A DNA stretch of 64,000 nt, from NCBI RefSeq assembly GCF_054482525.1, contig NZ_CM137006.1, one strand, 5' to 3'. Made by a program: the position numbers and the translations under genes. The notes beneath the pieces were generated by a model that made no database searches, was not told the origin of the DNA, and saw nothing but the letters and a program-made list of their open reading frames with translations. Below are positions 1-53,550 of the stretch, one piece after another. The stretch's first letter is position 1. Every line of letters begins with the position of its first letter.

Positions 1-552
1 ACATTAAACACACAGGGGACCGCTCATTCTGGCGCTACTACTAGTTTGTGGGGTAACTCTACCCGTCCGGTTGTATATGAAGTTGGTGCTGATGGTGGCG
101 CGTATATGTTCTATGCGCAGAAAAATACCGATAACACCTATATGTTAAGCGTTAATGGTGCATGTCATGCCACCGCATTTAACCAGCATTCCGACCGGGA
201 TCTGAAAGACAACATTCAGGTGATCGATAATGCAACCGACCGCATCCGTAAAATGAACGGCTATACATACACGCTTAAAGAAAACGGTATGCCCTATGCA
301 GGTGTCATTGCACAGGAAGCTCTGGAAGCAATCCCAGAAGTTGTAGGTTCCGCAATGAAATATCAGGACGGTGCAAGCGGATCGGAAGGTGAAGAAGGTG
401 AACGTTATTACACAGTAGATTATTCTGGTGTTACTGGCTTGCTTGTTCAGGTAGCCAGAGAGTCAGACGACAGAATAACAGTACTGGAAGAAGAAAACGC
501 AGAATTAAGGCAAAGATTATCTGCAATTGAGGCGACGCTTGCGTCTAAATAA
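1..552 (+). CDS. Phage tail fibre/tailspike protein, C-terminal fragment with S74-type intramolecular chaperone domain; 5' end lies outside the window
   Basis: Frame is open from nt 1 (ORF track starts at TTG 46). Translation has an SDRDLKDNI motif (Ser-Lys dyad as in self-cleaving tail-fibre chaperone domains) followed by a C-terminal coiled-coil-like LEEENAELRQRLSAIEATL. Confidence 0.6.
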   Translation, partial: TLNTQGTAHSGATTSLWGNSTRPVVYEVGADGGAYMFYAQKNTDNTYMLSVNGACHATAFNQHSDRDLKDNIQVIDNATDRIRKMNGYTYTLKENGMPYAGVIAQEALEAIPEVVGSAMKYQDGASGSEGEEGERYYTVDYSGVTGLLVQVARESDDRITVLEEENAELRQRLSAIEATLASK

Positions 553-563
553 TATTAAGGGCT

Positions 564-881
564 ATGCGCCCCGTTTTATTGGGTAGGATGAAAATGGATA
601 TAACACCTTTTCTTCATGCGCTTTGTGCTGTGGCTGCGCAGGTACTGGTTGGTTTTTTTACCGGAAACTGGGCTTACGGGGCGATAGCCGGTTGTACATT
701 CTTCATTGCGCGGGAACACACCCAGGCAGAATATCGCTGGATTGAAATGTTCGGGCATGGCAAGCGGATTAACATGCCGTGGTGGGGCGGTTTTGATCCA
801 CGTGCATGGGATGTGGCAAGCCTGATGGATTTTGCTGTGCCGGTGGTGGCGTGTCTGCTGATCTGGATGTTGATCCGTTAA
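564..881 (+). CDS. Small hydrophobic membrane protein at the prophage end (possible moron); function unknown
   Basis: 105-aa ORF directly after the tail-fibre fragment with about three hydrophobic segments; alternative ATG starts at 588 and 594, the latter with an AGGA Shine-Dalgarno. No family recognised. Confidence 0.4.
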   Translation: MRPVLLGRMKMDITPFLHALCAVAAQVLVGFFTGNWAYGAIAGCTFFIAREHTQAEYRWIEMFGHGKRINMPWWGGFDPRAWDVASLMDFAVPVVACLLIWMLIR

Positions 882-1229
882 ATATAAAAAGTAAAAAGCC
901 GCAGTAACTTGTCATGATAGGATACTGCGGCTGGCTGGTTAACTTTCGATAGTGCGAGTATTGAATGATTTCCAGCCGTTACCGATTTTATATAACTGCA
1001 GTGGAATTATTCAACACACAGGCAAAACGGAATAAGCTGAGAAAAAAGCGTGCTTACCCAATCTGGGGTAAATCACGTCTGAATGACACCTGAAAACAGG
1101 TGGTGGCCTCAAGAAGGCTTGGAATATTCTTCTTTAATGTTATGTAATTTATTGATTTTTCGTGTACGATTTTAAGACATTTATTCCAAGAAAAATTTTT
1201 AACTCTTTGATTTTTCGACTCTGTATCAT

Positions 1230-1291
1230 CGGTCTCGAAAACCGGAGTAGGGGCAACTCTACCGGGGGTTCAAATCCCCCTCTCTCCGCCA
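1230..1291 (+). repeat. 3' 61 nt of tRNA-Ser(CGA) (serU-like) without the 5' half; probable prophage attR core
   Basis: Sequence GGTCTCGAAAACCGGAGTAGGGGCAACTCTACCGGGGGTTCAAATCCCCCTCTCTCCGCCA matches the anticodon-loop to CCA end of a class II tRNA-Ser; upstream bases cannot form an acceptor or D arm. Confidence 0.6.
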
Positions 1292-1839
1292 CTTTATCAA
1301 TGACTTATCTCCCGACTTCCCGCCTTGCTTTTCCTAAACAGAACAATCGTAGAATATTCTTGAAGGGTTAGATCGTCACTGTTTTCTGTTCGATACTGTG
1401 ACATTCAGCACTTGATTCGCTATGGATCTGACAGGAAGGTCTCGAGCGAAAATCTGCAGTTATTCAGTCGTTTTCTTATCGGTCACCATTATTCTTTTAG
1501 ACATTGATCCTACGAAGCTGCCGCAAAGTTGGTGGTGGGAACTGAATTTGCGTAGAGAAGGGGTCAATAATTGAGCCAAAAAAGGAACGCGGCCGTCAGA
1601 TTAAAGCCGCGGGACAAAGTCCATAATTTCCAAGAGTTGTTGAATTTCCCAGCTTTTTTGAAAGCCTTTGTATCATACTAACAAGTAAAAAAGGTTTAAA
1701 TACCAAAATTAACCTATATTTCTGGTTAGCTTTACCATGACAGATGACTTGCTCCTGGAGACATTGGCGCAGCCAGTCTGTATTGGTGAGTTGTGTATTT
1801 ATTGTTCGCCGTTTTCTCAGTTTTTTTCTACAGACATAA

Positions 1840-1872
1840 TAAAAAAGACACGTCTCAAGCATGAGCGTGTCT
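1840..1872 (-). terminator. Rho-independent terminator downstream of zinT
   Basis: 7-bp stem AGACACG/CGTGTCT with an A-run on the plus strand (T-run on the minus strand) just 3' of the zinT stop. Confidence 0.45.
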
Positions 1873-1960
1873 GAGTTTGTCTTATTTATTTGTCTTGGTA
1901 AATTATTGTCGTTACTACCAGGCACTGTTCTGTTAAATAATTGAAGTCAGCGCAAAAAAA

Positions 1961-2611
1961 TCAATGAGACATCATTTCCTCGACCACTTCTTCGCTACTC
2001 AACTGATATGGATAATACGTTGGCCAGTTTTCCATTTCATTTAATAAAGATTGCTGTGAATCATTACCCATAAAAATGTGAAAATGAGATGATTTTCGTG
2101 GTGCAATTATATGATCGCTAAATTGTATATATTTAGGGGCTTTGCTTTTAGGATCTTTACATTCGAATAAGTAACGAACGCCTTTCTTGCCTGATTTATA
2201 GGTGAGTATTTTGTATCCATCGTAATCATATTTACAGGATGTTGTTTCATTATTTCTATGGAATTCAACAATGCCGTCCTCAATGCCAATCATCTCGATA
2301 TCTGTCACATAACCTTTGCGATAATAATCTTTAATTTCAGCAAATGTTTTAGTTTTATCTGCATCCGCTTTCTTCTGAAAGACGGGGTCAAGTTTGCCAC
2401 TTTGCAGTAAAGGATAAACGGATTGCCAGACTCCATCCCAGTCACTGAGCGTTCGGTTTTGTACATTGGCATCATCAAAAACACCATTAGCAGCTTTTTG
2501 TTCGACCTCTGTTAAGGGTTTGCCGTGTGAGTGATGACCATGCGAAAAGGCAGGAGCGCTAACAATAAAGACACCTAAAGCAACAGCCAGTTTATGAAGA
2601 CGAATCGCCAA
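1961..2611 (-). CDS. zinT: Zinc/cadmium-binding periplasmic protein ZinT
   Basis: 216-aa ORF with signal peptide and His-rich HGHHSHG motif; matches ZinT (YodA). Confidence 0.93.
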
Positions 2612-2642
2612 AACAGTTTCCTCCAGAGTTAATGTATATGAT

Positions 2643-2666
2643 GTGTAATGTTATATTGTAACACAT
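2643..2666 (-). promoter_or_regulatory. Putative Zur box in the zinT promoter
   Basis: AT-rich near-palindrome TGTAATGTTATATTGTAACACA about 35 bp upstream of the zinT start; zinT is a known Zur target. Confidence 0.35.
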
Positions 2667-2819
2667 AAAAAAATGCAACAACTCTTAGGAGACAAGAGAA
2701 TAGTTCTCTCAGGTGTGCTTATCTATCTTATTGAAATAAAATAAATTATGTCGATGATTTGAGGTTGATGACAAACGAAACATAACCTAATGCGATCTGT
2801 GTATGCCGGATAAGGCGCT

Positions 2820-3574
<755 letters not shown>

Positions 3575-3678
3575 ATCAGCATACTTGTCCTTAGCCTTCT
3601 GCAGTGACAGCTGGTAGTACAGCGTGCTTCTGGCCAGCCCTGCAGCCTTTAACAGGTCAGACTGGCAGTGTCCGCACC

Positions 3679-4209
3679 TCAGGCTCCGGATGACTTTCGT
3701 TTTTTCTCCAGCTCCTGGCGCTTTTTTTCCAGGAGATGCTCCTGCATGGCTTTCAGATATGCATTTTCTGCGCGAAGATAACGCAGCTCATTCTTCATCT
3801 CTTCCGGCGTCATGTTTGCCTCGTTTTCATGGGTATCATCAGAACGGGTCATGCTTTTCTCCTTCCTGCGCCTGATAAAGGCCTCATTACCAGATTTGCG
3901 GTAGCCTTTTATCCAGTTTTTAACCGTGTTGTGGCTGGGAATGTTAAACCGGGCAGCTACCCGGGGTAGAGACTCAGAATGCCCGAGAGCATAAAGAACC
4001 ACGCAAAGTTTATCTTCAGGAGAATAGCTACGCTTGTGTCTGCAATCCAGTGCCCGAGGACCGTGAAGAAGAAAAAGATTAATCCAGTGTGAGAGGCTGG
4101 TGTGAGAAAGTTGAAAGAGTTTTGCCGTAGAAATGATGCCTGCATGACCAGCCAGGTAATGATTTACAGCGGCAAGTTTTACTTCAAATGAATGTTTCAT
4201 AAACTGCAC
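3679..4209 (-). CDS. IS3-family transposase OrfA (helix-turn-helix DNA-binding subunit)
   Basis: 176-aa ORF with a basic, leucine-zipper-like C-terminus; slippery heptamer A AAA AAG at plus 3721-3728 in the 0 frame. Confidence 0.85.
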   Translation of the reverse strand: MQFMKHSFEVKLAAVNHYLAGHAGIISTAKLFQLSHTSLSHWINLFLLHGPRALDCRHKRSYSPEDKLCVVLYALGHSESLPRVAARFNIPSHNTVKNWIKGYRKSGNEAFIRRRKEKSMTRSDDTHENEANMTPEEMKNELRYLRAENAYLKAMQEHLLEKKRQELEKKRKSSGA

Positions 4210-4302
4210 CTTCAGATGTCAGATTATGTCCAACATTTGGGGTGCAGTTCAGCTCGCGCCGCATCCGGCAGGGATAACGCGTACTTTGTCGGCAATATGA
4301 AG

Positions 4303-4938
4303 TTATAGAGATAATTTGTTGTGAACCTGCTTGCGTAACCGGTTGAAAAGGGAAAGCAACTTCTTATACCGTAAGGCTAAAAGCAGTACCGCCAGCCCAG
4401 CGTAGATGAGTGGCTGCGGTGAAATAATCTTCACTGACCACAGATAATGTATTGGGGCCAGGATCACGACAAGATAGACGAAGTTATGCAACTGTTGCCA
4501 GTGTTTGCCGAGTTTTCGCTGCATCGCCTGGGTTGAAGTGAACGCTAAAGCAAGCAAAATAACCCAGCTGATAATTCCTAACGTTAAATAAGGCCGGGTA
4601 ATTAACTCCTTGCCTAATAACGCCAGATTATTCACGCCCAGCTCCAGTAATGCGTAACTGGTTAAATGCAGTGTCGCCCAGGCAAAGCACCATAAGCCTA
4701 ACAGGCGGCGAGTGCGTATCAATAACGGCTGTTTTGCGTAGCGTGCCAGAGGTGTGATTAACAAGGCCGCCAGCAAAAATTTCAGTGCAGTGCGACCAGT
4801 AAAATGCTGAATATCTTTCACCGGATCGGCACCCAATCCACCGTGATTAATCGCCCAGACCAGCCAGAGAAACGGCAACAATCCGGCAAGATGCAGGCAA
4901 ACTTTCAGCCATGTCACCTGTTTTGCTGTCAGACGCAT
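4303..4938 (-). CDS. msrQ: Methionine sulfoxide reductase haem-binding membrane subunit MsrQ
   Basis: 211-aa polytopic membrane ORF matching MsrQ (YedZ); translationally coupled to msrP. Confidence 0.93.
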
Positions 4939-5949
<1,011 letters not shown>

Positions 5950-6051
5950 TCACACTTTTTTGTCTTTAGCCAGCAAGAGCCGTTTACTGTTAATCTGTCA
6001 GGGAGTGTCCTCCCTAACAGTAGCAGAGATCTGCTTTTACATATTTATGCA

Positions 6052-6465
6052 TTAACTGCCACGATAGGTTGAATACCCATATTGGCTAAGTAATAAAGGC
6101 ACATGATAATGCTCGTTCACTTTATTAATATGAAATTCAACGGGGATCTCAGGGAAGAGACTTTCAAGATTTTGTTTCTTGAAATAGTCCCCGGTTTTAA
6201 ATACGACACGGTAATCGCCCGTAGTTGCAGTTTGCTCGGGCCACAGTGCCTTAATTCGTCCATCCTTATCTGTTTTGGCGGTATTAAGTTGTAACCAGCC
6301 GTTATCCGCTTTCTTTTCAAGAGTGACTGTCACGTCGGCAGCGGGTTTTCCTGTTTGCTGGTTCAAAATATGCACGCTAAGAATGTTTTGTTGTGCAGCA
6401 TAGACCAAAGAAGGTAATGAAAATGCAGCCGTTACTACGGAGAGTACTAAATAACGCTTTAACAT
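6052..6465 (-). CDS. hiuH: 5-hydroxyisourate hydrolase (transthyretin-like periplasmic protein)
   Basis: 137-aa ORF with signal peptide and C-terminal YRGS signature. Confidence 0.92.
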
Positions 6466-6534
6466 GTTTATATCCTTGTCATGTGAATGAGTTTTGAGGA
6501 TAGCGAAAAAGCGTCCAGGGTAACCTTACAGAAG

Positions 6535-6552
6535 CATTACAATTTTGTAATG
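6535..6552. promoter_or_regulatory. HprR/CusR-type response-regulator box in the hiuH-hprR divergent intergenic region
   Basis: Palindrome CATTACAATTTTGTAATG between hiuH and hprR. Confidence 0.5.
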
Positions 6553-6597
6553 AACCAGGCTGTTTCTATAACATATGATTTATGGCATATTATTTTC

Positions 6598-7269
6598 ATG
6601 AAGATTCTACTTATTGAAGATAATCAAAGGACCCAGGAATGGGTAACGCAGGGGCTTTCAGAAGCGGGTTATGTCATTGATGCCGTTACTGATGGCAGAG
6701 ACGGGCTTTATCTTGCGCTGAAGGATGATTATGCATTGATCATTCTGGATATTATGCTTCCGGGTATGGATGGCTGGCAGATCTTACAAACGTTAAGAAC
6801 GGCAAAGCAAACTCCTGTTATTTGCCTTACTGCAAGAGATTCTGTCGATGACAGAGTCAGAGGGCTGGACAGTGGGGCAAATGATTATCTGGTAAAACCT
6901 TTTTCATTTTCTGAGTTGCTGGCAAGGGTTCGGGCACAATTAAGGCAACATTACGCTTTGAATTCAACATTAGAAATCAGCGGCTTAAGAATGGACTCTG
7001 TTAGTCAAAGTGTGAGCAGGGACAATATCAGTATTACACTGACGCGCAAGGAGTTTCAGTTACTTTGGCTACTGGCCTCCAGAGCTGGCGAAATTATACC
7101 CAGAACGGTTATTGCGAGTGAAATTTGGGGAATCAACTTTGATAGTGATACCAATACGGTGGATGTCGCCATTCGCAGGCTCCGCGCAAAAGTTGATGAT
7201 CCTTTTCCTGAAAAGCTAATCGCCACAATCCGGGGGATGGGCTATTCATTCGTAGCGGTAAAAAAATAA
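6598..7269 (+). CDS. hprR: OmpR-family response regulator HprR
   Basis: Receiver domain (MKILLIEDN...D...) plus winged-helix output domain; start taken at the internal ATG giving 223 aa (ORF track begins at 6487). Confidence 0.9.
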   Translation: MKILLIEDNQRTQEWVTQGLSEAGYVIDAVTDGRDGLYLALKDDYALIILDIMLPGMDGWQILQTLRTAKQTPVICLTARDSVDDRVRGLDSGANDYLVKPFSFSELLARVRAQLRQHYALNSTLEISGLRMDSVSQSVSRDNISITLTRKEFQLLWLLASRAGEIIPRTVIASEIWGINFDSDTNTVDVAIRRLRAKVDDPFPEKLIATIRGMGYSFVAVKK

Positions 7270-8627
7270 TGAAAAGATTATCTATAACCGTCCGTTTAAC
7301 CTTGCTTTTTATATTGCTGCTGTCTGTTGCTGGCGCTGGAATTGTATGGACTCTCTATAATGGCCTGGCAAGTGAGTTGAAATGGCGCGATGATACAACA
7401 CTCATTAACCGGACAGCGCAGATCAAGCAGTTGTTAATTGATGGGGTAAATCCAGATACGTTACCTGTGTACTTTAACCGGATGATGGATGTTAGTCAGG
7501 ATATCTTGATCATTCATGGTGATAGCATCAACAAAATTGTTAACCGGACGAATGTCAGTGATGACATGTTAAATAACATACCTGCTACTGAGACAATCAG
7601 CGCAGCTGGCATTTACAGAAGCATTATTAATGATACAGAGATAGATGCTTTACGAATTAATATTGATGAAGTTTCGCCATCATTAACGGTTACTGTGGCT
7701 AAATTGGCTTCAGCCAGACATAACATGCTTGAACAGTATAAAATTAATAGCATTATAATTTGCATTGTCGCCATTATACTTTGCTCAGTATTAAGTCCGT
7801 TGTTAATCAGAACGGGGTTACGAGAGATCAAAAAGTTGAGTGGTGTAACGGAAGCGCTGAATTATAACGATAACCGGGAGCCTGTTGAGGTTAGCGCATT
7901 ACCGAGAGAACTAAAACCTCTTGGGCAGGCGTTGAATAAAATGCACCAAGCCTTAGTCAAAGATTTTGAACGCCTAAGTCAATTTGCTGACGATCTCGCT
8001 CATGAACTTAGAACACCAATTAATGCATTACTGGGTCAGAATCAGGTTACGCTCAGTCAAACCAGAAGTATCGCTGAATATCAAAAAACAATTGCCGGAA
8101 ACATTGAAGAGCTGGAAAATATTTCGCGGTTAACAGAGAACATACTGTTTCTTGCCAGGGCAGATAAAAACAATGTTTTGGTGAAACTGGATTCGCTTTC
8201 TCTCAATAAGGAAGTCGAAAATTTGTTGGACTATCTTGAATACCTTTCAGACGAGAAAGAGATTTACTTTAAGGTCGAGTGCAATCAGCAAATTTTTGCG
8301 GATAAAATTTTACTGCAACGAATGTTATCGAATCTTATTGTTAACGCTATTCGATATTCACCAGAAAAATCGCGCATTCAGATAACCAGTTTTCTTGATA
8401 CCAACGGTTCTCTTAATATTGATATCGCCAGTCCTGGAACGAAAATTCATGAGCCTGAAAAACTCTTCCGTAGATTTTGGCGGGGAGATAATTCGCGTCA
8501 TTCCGTAGGTCAGGGACTTGGTCTTTCTTTAGTCAAAGCGATTGCCGAATTGCATGGGGGAAGTGCTACGTATCACTATCTCAATAAGCATAATGTGTTC
8601 CGGATTACGTTACCGCAAAGAAATTAA
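7269..8627 (+). CDS. hprS: Sensor histidine kinase HprS
   Basis: 452-aa ORF with two transmembrane segments, H-box (LAHELRTPIN) and ATPase motifs; start overlaps the hprR stop. Confidence 0.92.
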   Translation: MKRLSITVRLTLLFILLLSVAGAGIVWTLYNGLASELKWRDDTTLINRTAQIKQLLIDGVNPDTLPVYFNRMMDVSQDILIIHGDSINKIVNRTNVSDDMLNNIPATETISAAGIYRSIINDTEIDALRINIDEVSPSLTVTVAKLASARHNMLEQYKINSIIICIVAIILCSVLSPLLIRTGLREIKKLSGVTEALNYNDNREPVEVSALPRELKPLGQALNKMHQALVKDFERLSQFADDLAHELRTPINALLGQNQVTLSQTRSIAEYQKTIAGNIEELENISRLTENILFLARADKNNVLVKLDSLSLNKEVENLLDYLEYLSDEKEIYFKVECNQQIFADKILLQRMLSNLIVNAIRYSPEKSRIQITSFLDTNGSLNIDIASPGTKIHEPEKLFRRFWRGDNSRHSVGQGLGLSLVKAIAELHGGSATYHYLNKHNVFRITLPQRN

Positions 8628-8660
8628 CATAGGGCTTCAGTACGCCATAAATTAACCGTG

Positions 8661-8698
8661 AAAAACGCAGCCACGTCGTGAGTACTAACGCGGCTGCG
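8661..8698 (-). terminator. Hairpin between the convergent hprS and hchA genes (likely hchA terminator)
   Basis: Stem CGCAGCC/GGCTGCG with a minus-strand T-run. Confidence 0.35.
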
Positions 8699-8733
8699 AT
8701 TGATTATGTGCTTACATTCAAACGTAACAGGGA

Positions 8734-9585
8734 TTAACCCGCGTAAGCTGCCAGCATTTCCTGCGCCGCCAGTTTACCCAACGCATTCGCTGCGAAAGGA
8801 CTGTCGCCGGTGAGAACTTTACGGTCCTTATGTACTCGCCCGGTGATGTCGTCATTAATAATGTTCATGCCCATTTTCTTCAGCTCTTCGCCGAAGTACC
8901 AGGTGAGATGACCCGGCATATAGCCTATCTCTGGCGTTTGTTTGTCTGCGGCGTCTGGGAATGCGCAAATGGAATAACCATTCAGTGGGTTATCGCCGTG
9001 GCGAAGCGCCAGAAATGCCGCCGGGCCGTGGCAAAGGGAGATAACAAAACGGTCATTTTTGATTGCCCACTGTAAAGCGGCAGCCACGTTCTGGCTTTCT
9101 GGTAAACCAATAAGTGCGCCATGACCACCAGGAACAAAGATTGCTGCATATTCGCTGTCAGCGTTGAGGCTGGCGACAACATCCGCGAGTTTCTTCGGAT
9201 TGCGGAACAACGATTTATGCTGCTCAAAGAATGGCATTACTTTTTCATCTTTGTGCGGCATAGCCCAGTATTCAAACTTGGTCATCAGACCGGAAATGGT
9301 CGCCACTTCGAATTCGAAACCTGCAGCGTGGAGATGATACAACGGCAGCAACGTTTCAATCGGATGGTTACCGGTCGAGAACAGTTTTCCGTTATCGGTC
9401 GGCAAATAACGTTCGTCCGCGGCGATCACCAGAATTTTATGTTTACCGCGATACGGTTTTGGATAGTCCACGCCATCAAGATCAGAGACAGGACTGGTAT
9501 ATTGGCTAAGCGAATATTCTGAAGGGAAGAATGCATTATCTTCAGCAATATCGACCTGCGGATTTTTACTTGTTTGAACAGTCAT
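8734..9585 (-). CDS. hchA: Hsp31 chaperone / glyoxalase III (DJ-1/PfpI family)
   Basis: 283-aa ORF matching HchA. Confidence 0.95.
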   Translation of the reverse strand: MTVQTSKNPQVDIAEDNAFFPSEYSLSQYTSPVSDLDGVDYPKPYRGKHKILVIAADERYLPTDNGKLFSTGNHPIETLLPLYHLHAAGFEFEVATISGLMTKFEYWAMPHKDEKVMPFFEQHKSLFRNPKKLADVVASLNADSEYAAIFVPGGHGALIGLPESQNVAAALQWAIKNDRFVISLCHGPAAFLALRHGDNPLNGYSICAFPDAADKQTPEIGYMPGHLTWYFGEELKKMGMNIINDDITGRVHKDRKVLTGDSPFAANALGKLAAQEMLAAYAG

Positions 9586-10096
9586 AGTGTATTCCTTATT
9601 GTTGCTTAGTTAGGGTAGTCACTATATTTGCGACTGAGCTGGTCGTTATTTTTACCCAGTCTGGAAAATTGAGTCAATATATCGAAAGCGGTAGTCGGCG
9701 GGCGTAAGTATGTAATGATGATGCTGCACTGGTGTTGAATATTATTCACGCCAAATTTTCCTTATGGAGCAACGCCGTCGCAAGTGGCCTCAATGATTTT
9801 AGACCATTATCAGAGGTCCGGGGCGGCAGGGAGAGATTTAATGTTGTGGAATATTGTGGTGCTGATGAATATTTATATCGCGGATTGGTAGAGAAAAAGC
9901 TTTTTTCATGCACTATTTTTGCAAATATTTCTATATGGACGGCGGTTTTGTTGCGGATTAATTCATAAAGAAATGCATTTGGGTGTTGGCTGGAAGAGAC
10001 GCTGGTAGATTTTATTGAGCCAGGAGGGGCGGGGTAATGTGCTGTATCGATATGCTTTGGCAATTGCGTGTGCCGCAGATGGAGATGAAATGCCAA

Positions 10097-10134
10097 TAAA
10101 AAAGCCTGAGTTCGATGAGGGACGAACTCAGGCT
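10097..10134 (-). terminator. Rho-independent terminator downstream of yedS
   Basis: 11-bp stem GCCTGAGTTCG/CGAACTCAGGC followed on the minus strand by TTTTTTATT. Confidence 0.5.
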
Positions 10135-10176
10135 ATTGTTAAGTTTTACAGTAACACGCCACGGCGCGTTGGCTGA

Positions 10177-11292
10177 TTAGAACTGGTAGACGATACCAAC
10201 TGCAAACTGGTCATCAGCTGCTGCGCCAGTAATGGCGGCGTCATCTTTATCCAGCATGTTGAATTTGTATGCAGTATAAACGTTCATGTTCTTATTGAAG
10301 TAGTACCAGGTACCAACTTCAATGTAGTTCACACGGTCAGCGTCAACATATCTATGTCCAGGTACACCTTTGATATCTTTACCTTTAGAATACACATAAC
10401 CTAAGGACGGACGCAGACCAAAGTCGAATTGATACTGAACAACCGCTTCAAAGTTCTGGGTTTCATTGATAAGTTGATCACGCATTATTGTATTGCCTTC
10501 TCGATCGGCAACACCTGTATCAATAGAACTCGGAGTCATATTACGAGTTTCACCGTACATTACAGCTGCGTAGACATTGTTCGCGTCATACTTTGCAGCC
10601 AATGACCACAGTTCAGCATTTGAACCGTTTCCATCGGCAACTTGATCGTTGGTGCGATCAGATTTGCTATATGCACCAACGATACCAAAACCATTGATGT
10701 TATAGTCTACAGACAACGCATAGCCGTCACCATTTTGTTTCTTAGTGCTACGGTTGCTGTTTTTGCCTTGGTACTGAATCGCAAAATCAAGACCATCAAC
10801 CAGACCAAAGAAATCAGAGTTACGGTAGGTTGCAACACCGTTGGTACGACCGTTCATGAAGTTGTCAGCGGACGCCCAGGAATCACCACCCCATTCAACT
10901 AACATATCGGTATAAGCTGCGGCATCATAAGCAACACCGTAGTTACGACCATAGTCGAAAGATCCTAACTCGTTATATTTCAAACCTGCGAAGGTTAAAC
11001 GGGTTTTTTCCTGATTAGAGCCTTCGGGCTTGCTGGCGTCGAGGTTGTATTCAAACTGACCAAAACCAGTCAGTTCGCTGGTGATTTGGGTTTCACCTTT
11101 AACACCGAAACGAGCATAGGAGGTATCTTCGTTTTCGCTGTTATTATCATCAGTATTTGACCAGATGCGTTCGCCAACCATCTTGCCGTAGAAATCAACT
11201 TTATTGCCATCTTTATTATAAATTTCAGCCGCATTTGCTGCGCCAGCAACTAATAACGCCGGGACCAGCATTGCCAGAACTTTTCTTTTCAT
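10177..11292 (-). CDS. yedS: Outer-membrane general porin of the OmpC/OmpF family (YedS), apparently intact
   Basis: Signal peptide [21 protein letters not shown], porin-like beta-barrel sequence, C-terminal ...VGIVYQF; start chosen at the ATG with an AAGGGA Shine-Dalgarno (ORF track begins at 11322). Confidence 0.85.
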
Positions 11293-11602: not shown

Positions 11603-11700
11603 TAAAAAAAGCCGGCATCATGCCGGCCCAAAAAATATAAACAAGACGATAAAAGGCTAATAACGGAAGCATCATGACACAGAATAATAAAAAGGGATAA
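11603..11700 (-). ncRNA. rseX: Candidate small RNA upstream of yedS (position expected for RseX); 5' end not determined
   Basis: Minus-strand terminator (hairpin GCCGGCATGATGCCGGC plus T-run, plus 11604-11627) in the yedR-yedS intergenic region; RseX is known from this position in K-12. Confidence 0.3.
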
Positions 11701-20028: not shown

Positions 20029-20116
20029 AACACATCAGATTTCCTGGTGTAACGAATTTTTTAAGTGCTTCTTGCTTAAGCAAGTTTCATCCCGACCCCC
20101 TCAGGGTCGGGATTTT
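20029..20116 (+). ncRNA. dsrA: DsrA small regulatory RNA
   Basis: Sequence AACACATCAGATTTCCTGGTGTAACGAATTTTTTAAGTGCTTCTTGCTTAAGCAAGTTTCATCCCGACCCCCTCAGGGTCGGGATTT including its terminator hairpin and U-run. Confidence 0.9.
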
Positions 20117-53420: not shown

Positions 53421-53496
<76 letters not shown>

Positions 53497-53550
53497 GTTT
53501 AAAAGACATCGGCGTCAAGCGGATGTCTGGCTGAAAGGCCTGAAGAATTT

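Follow-up and report, generated by a model that had tools for sequence, protein, structure and literature searches.

The first 1,291 bases of the 64,000-nt stretch of DNA analysed here (contig NZ_CM137006.1 of RefSeq assembly GCF_054482525.1, referred to below as the window) bring together the end of a tail-fibre gene, a small open reading frame and a piece of a tRNA-Ser gene. Such an arrangement raises the question of whether a prophage ends at this place and, if so, at which base and by which route its DNA was joined to the chromosome. The evidence assembled below identifies positions 1 to 1291, with high confidence, as the right end (attR) of a lambda-like prophage integrated in serU, the E. 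coli gene of tRNA-Ser(CGA). An attR made by integration into a tRNA gene had already been proposed in a preliminary description of the sequence. That proposal is borne out by host homology starting at the tRNA copy (in K-12 and SCU-102), by phage DNA on its left and by a reciprocal end in strains F344 and 405. The features on which the argument is built are the following.

1 to 552, plus strand: 3' end of a tail-fibre gene, comprising the last 183 codons and the stop of a 346-aa protein (Pfam PF13884, phrog_4563, annotation in relatives)
594 to 881, plus strand: predicted small conserved inner-membrane protein of 95 aa, phrog_1443, named 'Ybl63' in UniProt (phrog_1443 profile, RefSeq starts, AlphaFold2)
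882 to 1229, no strand: non-coding phage-side DNA of 36% G+C (882 to 990, mosaic block of the tail fibre and small ORF; 1035 to 1229, serU-type P arm)
1230 to 1291, plus strand: very probable displaced 3' fragment of serU (tRNA-Ser CGA), positions 29 to 90, attR core (exact 62-nt identity, unique in the window, no tRNA called)
1292 to 1738, no strand: chromosomal flank 3' of serU, B' side (K-12 homology; identical to SCU-102)
1739 to 1960, no strand: 222-bp segment in place of 995 bp of K-12 containing yodB (K-12 alignment; SCU-102 arranged alike)
1961 to 2611, minus strand: zinT, first host gene right of the junction (ORF and annotation of relatives)

Tyrosine integrases recombine the attachment site of the phage with a tRNA gene. 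In the case considered here, the phage site would carry its own copy of serU positions 29 to 90. The 5' part of the host gene would be joined to this phage-borne 3' part, and a working tRNA would be rebuilt beside the integrase at the left end of the prophage. The original 3' part of the host gene would end up some 41 kb further on, at the right end, where it would form window positions 1230 to 1291.

The tRNA-Ser fragment

Window positions 1230 to 1291 are identical to positions 29 to 90 of the K-12 serU gene at 62 of 62 nucleotides, and the 28 nt found immediately upstream of 1230 bear no relation to serU. The 62-mer is unique in the 64-kb window, and none of 100 shuffles contained it. The fragment had been described as a 61-nt tRNA-Ser 3' copy devoid of the 5' half; its status as a partial copy derived from serU stands, and its length has to be corrected to 62 nt. 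An intact tRNA-Ser across 1200 to 1291 was also considered as a candidate and was ruled out by direct alignment, by ARAGORN and by Rfam. ARAGORN, applied to the window, called no tRNA at 1230 to 1291, its only calls being tRNAs for Gly, Cys and Leu at 53.4 to 53.7 kb. The Rfam tRNA model gave no match at 1230 to 1291, either at its gathering score or at E<=1. Other Rfam models match weakly there (Plastid-psbl-rps4, sX4 and tmRNA). None of these matches reaches its gathering score, and they stem from the T-arm and variable arm that the fragment retains.

The boundary between phage and host DNA

Phage DNA ends at position 1229 and host DNA starts at position 1230. Homology to K-12 begins exactly at 1230 and runs to 1738, with 96.7% identity to K-12 positions 2043529 to 2043021. 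The same limit is obtained with strain SCU-102, whose serU is unoccupied and which displays mtfA, intact serU, zinT, IS1397 and msrQ without any insert. Over window positions 1230 to 9000, a single mismatch in 7771 nt separates SCU-102 from the window, and the match starts at base 29 of the SCU-102 serU gene. Beyond the junction, the flank keeps to the chromosomal order, passing zinT, msrQP and hprRS and reaching DsrA and glyW-cysT-leuZ, and no phage genes were found right of the 62-nt copy in the window. The replacement of yodB is a host polymorphism located outside the prophage, because the empty-site strain SCU-102 is arranged alike over the 222-bp segment; yodB is kept in other serU lysogens (L016 and L020).

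All the DNA left of 1230 is of phage origin. Bases 1 to 872 match phages Tritos, 2G7b and HannyBb at 94-95% identity, and this block is common to other phages as well. Bases 1 to 990 are 99.9% identical to a prophage inserted at a different chromosomal site (L019), in which a module boundary is visible near 990.

For annotation purposes, the right boundary of the prophage is thereby fixed to the base, an apparent tRNA pseudogene is explained, and the serU site of this strain can be recorded as occupied.

The opposite prophage end in related genomes

The window starts inside the tail-fibre gene, and the description of the integrase and of the intact serU gene is therefore drawn from genomes that are 98.7-98.9% identical across the junction. 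The best complete genomes display 98.3-98.9% identity over it. The junction and the final four prophage genes are common to F344 (NZ_OY754421.1), 405 (NZ_CM132957.1) and W46 (NZ_CP163115.1), with 98.3-98.8% identity over positions 1 to 2000; the serU prophages of these three strains differ from the window by about 1.2-1.7% divergence. F344 is the only one among the complete genomes listed to combine the prophage, the absence of yodB and IS1397, and it is 98.9% identical to the window over 9 kb.

The left end in F344 consists of mtfA, serU on the plus strand and a tyrosine integrase gene located 27 bp past the tRNA, followed by DUF4224 and exonuclease genes. These precede a Rac-like early region, Q, four tRNAs and lysis genes, after which the head genes, of HK97 type, and the tail genes, of lambda type, are found. 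The right part is made of J, Lom, a split side tail fibre, the small ORF and the 62-nt copy, and the distance from the end of the tRNA to this copy amounts to 41,007 bp. Strain 405 displays a like organisation over 41,155 bp. The lambda-type gene order is complete in both F344 and 405, and the window itself holds the last two genes only.

The intact tRNA and the integrase had been predicted to lie to the left of the window. Both were located there, 41.0 and 41.2 kb to the left, in relatives F344 and 405 only, and with an integrase annotated as frameshifted. Judged in these same relatives, phage genes and a second att copy are present within the 60 kb or so to the left for which they had been anticipated.

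The frameshift annotated by RefSeq in the integrase of both 405 and F344 bears on the state of the element, which may as a result no longer excise. The junction could accordingly be real while the prophage is a decayed or immobile remnant, having suffered for instance the inactivation of its integrase or a partial deletion. Replacements and deletions are reported among serU prophages (PMC7067040), and the left side of the window's own genome lies beyond view. On the other hand, the relatives keep a full lambdoid gene set over 41 kb, an uninterrupted integrase of 341 aa is annotated in ON470583, which has a like left end, and both the tail-fibre frame and the small ORF are intact in the window. 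A decayed element is therefore possible, although we consider it rather unlikely.

The same block in lambda-type phages

Integration in serU also has to be weighed against the presence of a very similar block within phage genomes. Phages ev099, mEp332 and PhiR70_1 carry positions 1035 to 1569 as one contiguous piece, which comprises the P arm, the 62-nt copy and 278 bp of host flank. These lambda-type phages rely on lambda Int together with the attP core of lambda, GCTTTTTTATACTAA. The 62-nt copy of the window could by analogy be a fossil attR enclosed in phage DNA, with the true prophage end situated further right. The homology of these phages nevertheless stops at 1569, where an AraC-type regulator and IS remnants follow, whereas the flank of the window stays collinear with the chromosome up to glyW-cysT-leuZ, differs from SCU-102 at the single position mentioned above and is free of phage genes, as well as of any lambda-type att half-site right of 1569. 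A fossil copy is accordingly very improbable at this locus.

Since the same block is found in free phages, the signature by itself is no proof of a junction, and it is the collinear host flank that decides. The point has some practical weight: a partial serU beside tail-fibre genes is insufficient to place a prophage end, and the flank needs to be checked, since the fossil block travels in lambda-type phages. Phages ev099 and mEp332 were also considered as the free form of the present element, with the copy serving as attP. They were rejected in this role on account of their lambda Int and adjacent lambda core, the 278 bp of host flank and a variable arm of host type.

Origin of the two serU copies and position of the crossover

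Integration in serU predicts that the 3' part of the regenerated gene should be of phage type and that the displaced fragment should be of host type. This is what was found, the left-end data being those of relatives. The rebuilt serU of 405, F344, ON470583 and ON470580 differs from that of K-12 by A48G and T59C. The left-end serU of 405, F344, 689R5 and 606R7 has G48/C59, and the window fragment, the other right-end copies and the empty sites all have the host-type A48/T59. Positions 48 and 59 pair in the stem of the variable arm, and the two substitutions are therefore compensatory.

The presence of A48G/T59C on the left and of the host type on the right allows the crossover to be bounded. 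It must fall after 1229, a position with a phage T in place of the host C, and before 1249, the first difference between phage and host inside the copy. The exchange would thus have taken place within the 19 nt from 1230 to 1248, in or next to the anticodon loop, as judged from these sequence differences. The anticodon stem-loop falls within this interval, its loop CTCGAAA occupying 1234 to 1240. Strand exchange in the anticodon loop is reportedly the commonest pattern for integrases that target tRNA genes. The general principle of integration into tRNA genes is stated in the Islander paper (PMC4383910). Typical of the anticodon-loop class are a shared segment that begins in the anticodon stem and extends as far as the 3' terminus of the tRNA, an intact gene restored beside the integrase and a fragment carried to the opposite end of the element. 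The present locus displays the same features and nothing unusual, with a crossover that is bounded to 19 nt rather than mapped.

A pseudogene left by a deletion or duplication of serU, without site-specific integration, is hardly conceivable: incomplete tRNA genes may have other origins and no integrase is visible in the window, but the breakpoint at 1230 parts phage from host DNA to the base, the fragment begins in the anticodon stem as anticodon-loop integrases predict, a reciprocal junction with a phage-type variable arm exists in relatives and a like junction is found in 836 of 5426 genomes.

The phage arm

Within the non-coding phage-side DNA, positions 1035 to 1229 are shared only with attachment regions of the serU type, namely those of ev099, mEp332 and PhiR70_1, to which phage SerU-LTIIb is added from 1107 on. 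Four candidate protein-binding sites were noted in this P arm.

1118 to 1125, plus strand: CTTGGAAT, candidate arm-type integrase site (clustering of the pattern in both arms)
1145 to 1157, minus strand: match to the IHF consensus YAANNNNTTGATW (consensus match only)
1183 to 1190, minus strand: CTTGGAAT inverted, second candidate arm-type site (clustering of the pattern)
1200 to 1212, minus strand: second match to the IHF consensus (consensus match only)

The first IHF match overlaps the first copy of a direct repeat, TTGATTTTTCG, at 1152 to 1162, and the second overlaps the other copy of the repeat at 1207 to 1217. Three copies of CTTGGAAT exist in 64 kb, two of which sit within 73 bp in the P arm; the count over the whole window is not above chance, and the clustering is the only notable aspect. 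Three tandem copies of the same pattern are found in the P' arm of 405 and F344, 46-76 bp past the end of the tRNA and inside the 3' end of int. The complete order of sites thus reads arm, IHF-like, arm, IHF-like, core and three tandem arm sites. On the basis of this pattern, the CTTGGAAT repeats and the IHF-like sites at 1118 to 1217 would represent the protein-binding sites of the P arm used for excision.

The layout resembles that of lambda attR and attP in several respects. The int gene lies beside the left junction and the end of the tail-fibre gene beside the right one, two candidate arm sites alternate with two IHF-like sites in the P arm, and three further candidates stand in tandem in the P' arm. 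It differs from lambda in its target, which is a tRNA gene with a shared segment of 62 nt instead of a 15-bp core between gal and bio, and in its integrase, which shares only about 23% identity with lambda Int.

The two genes at the prophage end

Frame 1 is open over positions 1 to 549 and ends with a TAA stop at 550 to 552. The encoded residues read ...NQHSDRDLKDNIQVI..., with the SDRDLKDNI motif at nt 190 to 216 (HSDRDLKDNI at nt 187 to 216). Residues 64 to 115 match Peptidase_S74 (Pfam PF13884, 'chaperone of endosialidase') at E=5e-14, over model positions 1 to 57 of 58. The 183 residues cover positions 164 to 346 of phrog_4563, a tail-fibre family of 346 positions, at E=3e-118. It follows from the latter match that the window opens at about residue 164 of a tail fibre of 346 aa, and the gene is annotated in 405, W46 and F344 as a 346-aa 'tail fiber domain-containing protein'. 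The reading of the SDRDLKDNI sequence as the C-terminal part of a chaperone-bearing tail-fibre gene at the opening of the window, made earlier from the motif, is confirmed by the PF13884 and phrog_4563 matches.

The chaperone domain starts at Ser64 (nt 190 to 192), with Lys69 at nt 205 to 207. The SDRxxK stretch aligns with SDRRIK of PDB entry 6f45, a solved fibre tip. Ser64 and Lys69 are five residues apart at the putative cleavage site, in a Ser-x4-Lys spacing that we take to be that of the catalytic pair of the S74 family. The tail fibre may, by analogy with this family, trim its own C-terminal chaperone at Ser64. The fibres and tailspikes of the S74 type, such as K1F endosialidase, T5 pb1 and S16 gp37 (the protein of 6f45), have in common with the present gene the PF13884 match and the S64/K69 pair at the start of the domain. 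In contrast to these proteins, only the last 183 residues of the fibre are held in the window and self-cleavage is a prediction.

The small ORF that follows is 105 aa long in its longest reading, from the first ATG (564 to 881). Residue 11 of this long ORF, encoded by the ATG at 594, is where the phrog_1443 profile begins and also where RefSeq places the start in relatives, and an AGGA is present 7 nt 5' of that codon. The protein therefore most likely comprises 95 aa starting at 594 and not 105 aa. The hydrophobic ORF reported earlier between the fibre and the tRNA copy is thus present as described, with a length that is probably 95 aa instead of the 105 aa first given.

The match to phrog_1443 covers residues 11 to 105 of the long ORF at E=2e-57. 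Sequence searches of the small ORF against Pfam, NCBIfam and PDB gave zero matches, and PHROGs returned only families without a functional annotation. A Pfam domain was found in none of the 576 clusters of homologues. An AlphaFold2 model (mean pLDDT 92) displays three helices at residues 4-23, 26-53 and 74-94. When this model was submitted to Foldseek against AFDB50, only uncharacterised homologues were returned, some of which are named 'Ybl63', together with a weak resemblance to DUF2784 and DUF2238; a literature search found the name 'Ybl63' in no paper. Across 54 aligned homologues, 19 residues are invariant, many of which are polar: D2, H8, R40, E41, Q44, A45, E46, Y47, R48, W49, I50, R58, P62, W64, G65, G66, F67, W72 and D79.

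The small membrane protein is encoded by an accessory gene at the end of the late operon. A role of the uncharacterised Ybl63 protein as a lysogenic-conversion or superinfection-exclusion factor in the inner membrane can be put forward as a speculative model, and we regard it as doubtful. The idea is based on the position at the end of the late operon, on the 19 invariant residues and on the existence of a stand-alone chromosomal homologue in Aeromonas. Among eight contigs examined that encode an identical small protein, the IS1397 arrangement was found in none. A 9-bp hairpin at about 899 to 937, 3' of the small ORF, was rejected as a candidate intrinsic terminator: the terminator scan did not call it, its loop being too long and a T-run being absent.

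Occurrence and known counterparts

The mechanism of integration has been textbook knowledge since lambda and P22. The junction described here is of an already known and common kind and involves no new biology. In STEC O145:H28, serU is among the loci named as standard prophage sites (PMC7067040). A matching right junction is present in phage SerU-LTIIb (KU052038), a lambdoid serU prophage with LT-IIb enterotoxin genes. Its P arm is shared from 1107 on, with 95.6% identity over 1107 to 1738, and a 62-nt pseudo tRNA-Ser is annotated at 9169 to 9230, before yodB. SerU-LTIIb differs from the present prophage by its stf/stf2 tail fibres, neither an S74 fibre nor the small ORF being reported for it, by its toxin cargo and by the yodB gene downstream, which is absent in the window.

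The prevalence of the junction was determined with a probe of 261 nt extending across the P arm, the 62-nt copy and the flank, which had to be covered at >=80%. By this measure, the junction type is present in 836 of the 5426 complete E. coli genomes. The junction accompanied by the present tail-fibre module is rarer and was found in 48 genomes. Most of the remaining genomes match the probe only from 1230 on, at an annotated tRNA-Ser.

Junction copies in free phages and the mosaic boundary

A fossil serU right junction is carried in the b-region of the free lambda-type phages ev099 (locus L006, LR597635.1) and mEp332 (locus L004, PV340541.1), where positions 5001-5535 and 4001-4535 of the respective loci correspond to window 1035-1569. 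The copy consists of the P arm (the phage-side attachment DNA), the 62-nt tRNA fragment in its host-type form and, from the E. coli chromosome, 278 bp of flanking DNA; it is followed by an AraC-type regulator and IS remnants. The integrase of both phages is that of lambda, and the lambda core GCTTTTTTATACTAA adjoins. The host DNA in this fossil junction looks to have been taken up by an old imprecise excision and later spread via recombination. The AraC/IS segment was found in 178 E. coli genomes, presence being scored when at least 80% of a 2133-nt probe was covered.

On the phage side, window 1-990, which holds the 3' part of the tail-fibre gene and the small ORF, is 99.9% identical to positions 9408-10397 of locus L019 (GCA_964041855.1). 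That block belongs to a prophage located at another chromosomal site, where the next genes are DinI, an integrase and a member of the Dus family. The mosaic module boundary falls near window 990; by 1035 the arm specific to serU has begun.

Small membrane protein family

The small ORF (window 594-881) is a member of phrog_1443, 'Ybl63', a family with 19 invariant residues including H8, R40, E41, Y47, W49 and D79. Structure prediction gives a confident three-helix model for the phrog_1443 protein. A gene of the family comes after gpJ in a Comamonas prophage (L012, 6001-6303), and another stands alone on the chromosome of Aeromonas rivipollensis (L013, 6001-6309), with a pirin gene on one side and a RIO1 kinase gene on the other.

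Related prophages and a second element at serU

The serU-type integrase of the related prophages in strains 405 (L002, 12262-13312) and F344 (L022, 8739-9789) is called frameshifted near its 3' end by RefSeq. This 3' end overlaps a run of three CTTGGAAT repeats in tandem, which lies in the P' arm at the integrase side of the prophage. In the ON470583 annotation, the serU-type integrase is intact, with 341 aa, and ends 56 nt from the tRNA; the frameshift call may reflect either a true defect or a convention of annotation. Both prophages also carry a cluster of four tRNA genes, flanked by the gene for the antiterminator Q on one side and the lysis genes on the other:

L002 26682-26991 (405): genes for tRNA-Ile, tRNA-Lys, tRNA-Thr and tRNA-Gly
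L022 23075-23384 (F344): genes for tRNA-Ile, tRNA-Lys, tRNA-Thr and tRNA-Gly

Identity to the window ends precisely with the last base of the 62-nt fragment (locus ~10637-10698 onward) in GCA_000460215.1 (L015) and GCA_054792645.1 (L018). A different island, with DUF6387, AlpA, H-NS-like and RepL-like genes, follows the fragment in both, and a prophage and a second element can therefore occupy serU in tandem.

Host flank and remaining chromosome

The features to the right of the junction are as follows:

~2612-4300: IS3-family element, IS1397 by annotation in relatives (ORFs 2852-3574 and 3679-4209, minus strand)
11604-11693, minus strand: RseX small RNA
20029-20115, plus strand: DsrA small RNA
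53421-53723, plus strand: glyW-cysT-leuZ tRNA cluster

The two small RNAs and the tRNA cluster are found at their expected chromosomal positions, and the remaining window is therefore confirmed as unremarkable E. coli chromosomal DNA that runs collinear with K-12. The yodB gene (putative cytochrome b561) is missing, a 222-bp segment at 1739-1960 standing in place of the 995 bp that include yodB in K-12. Since yodB is likewise replaced in SCU-102, whose serU site is empty, its absence is a polymorphism of the host and does not depend on the prophage. The gene is retained in two other serU lysogens (L016 and L020). The IS1397-type element sits between zinT and msrQ; this insertion is common to the window, SCU-102, PCN033 and F344, is missing in 405 and W46, and constitutes a useful marker of the lineage of the source strain.
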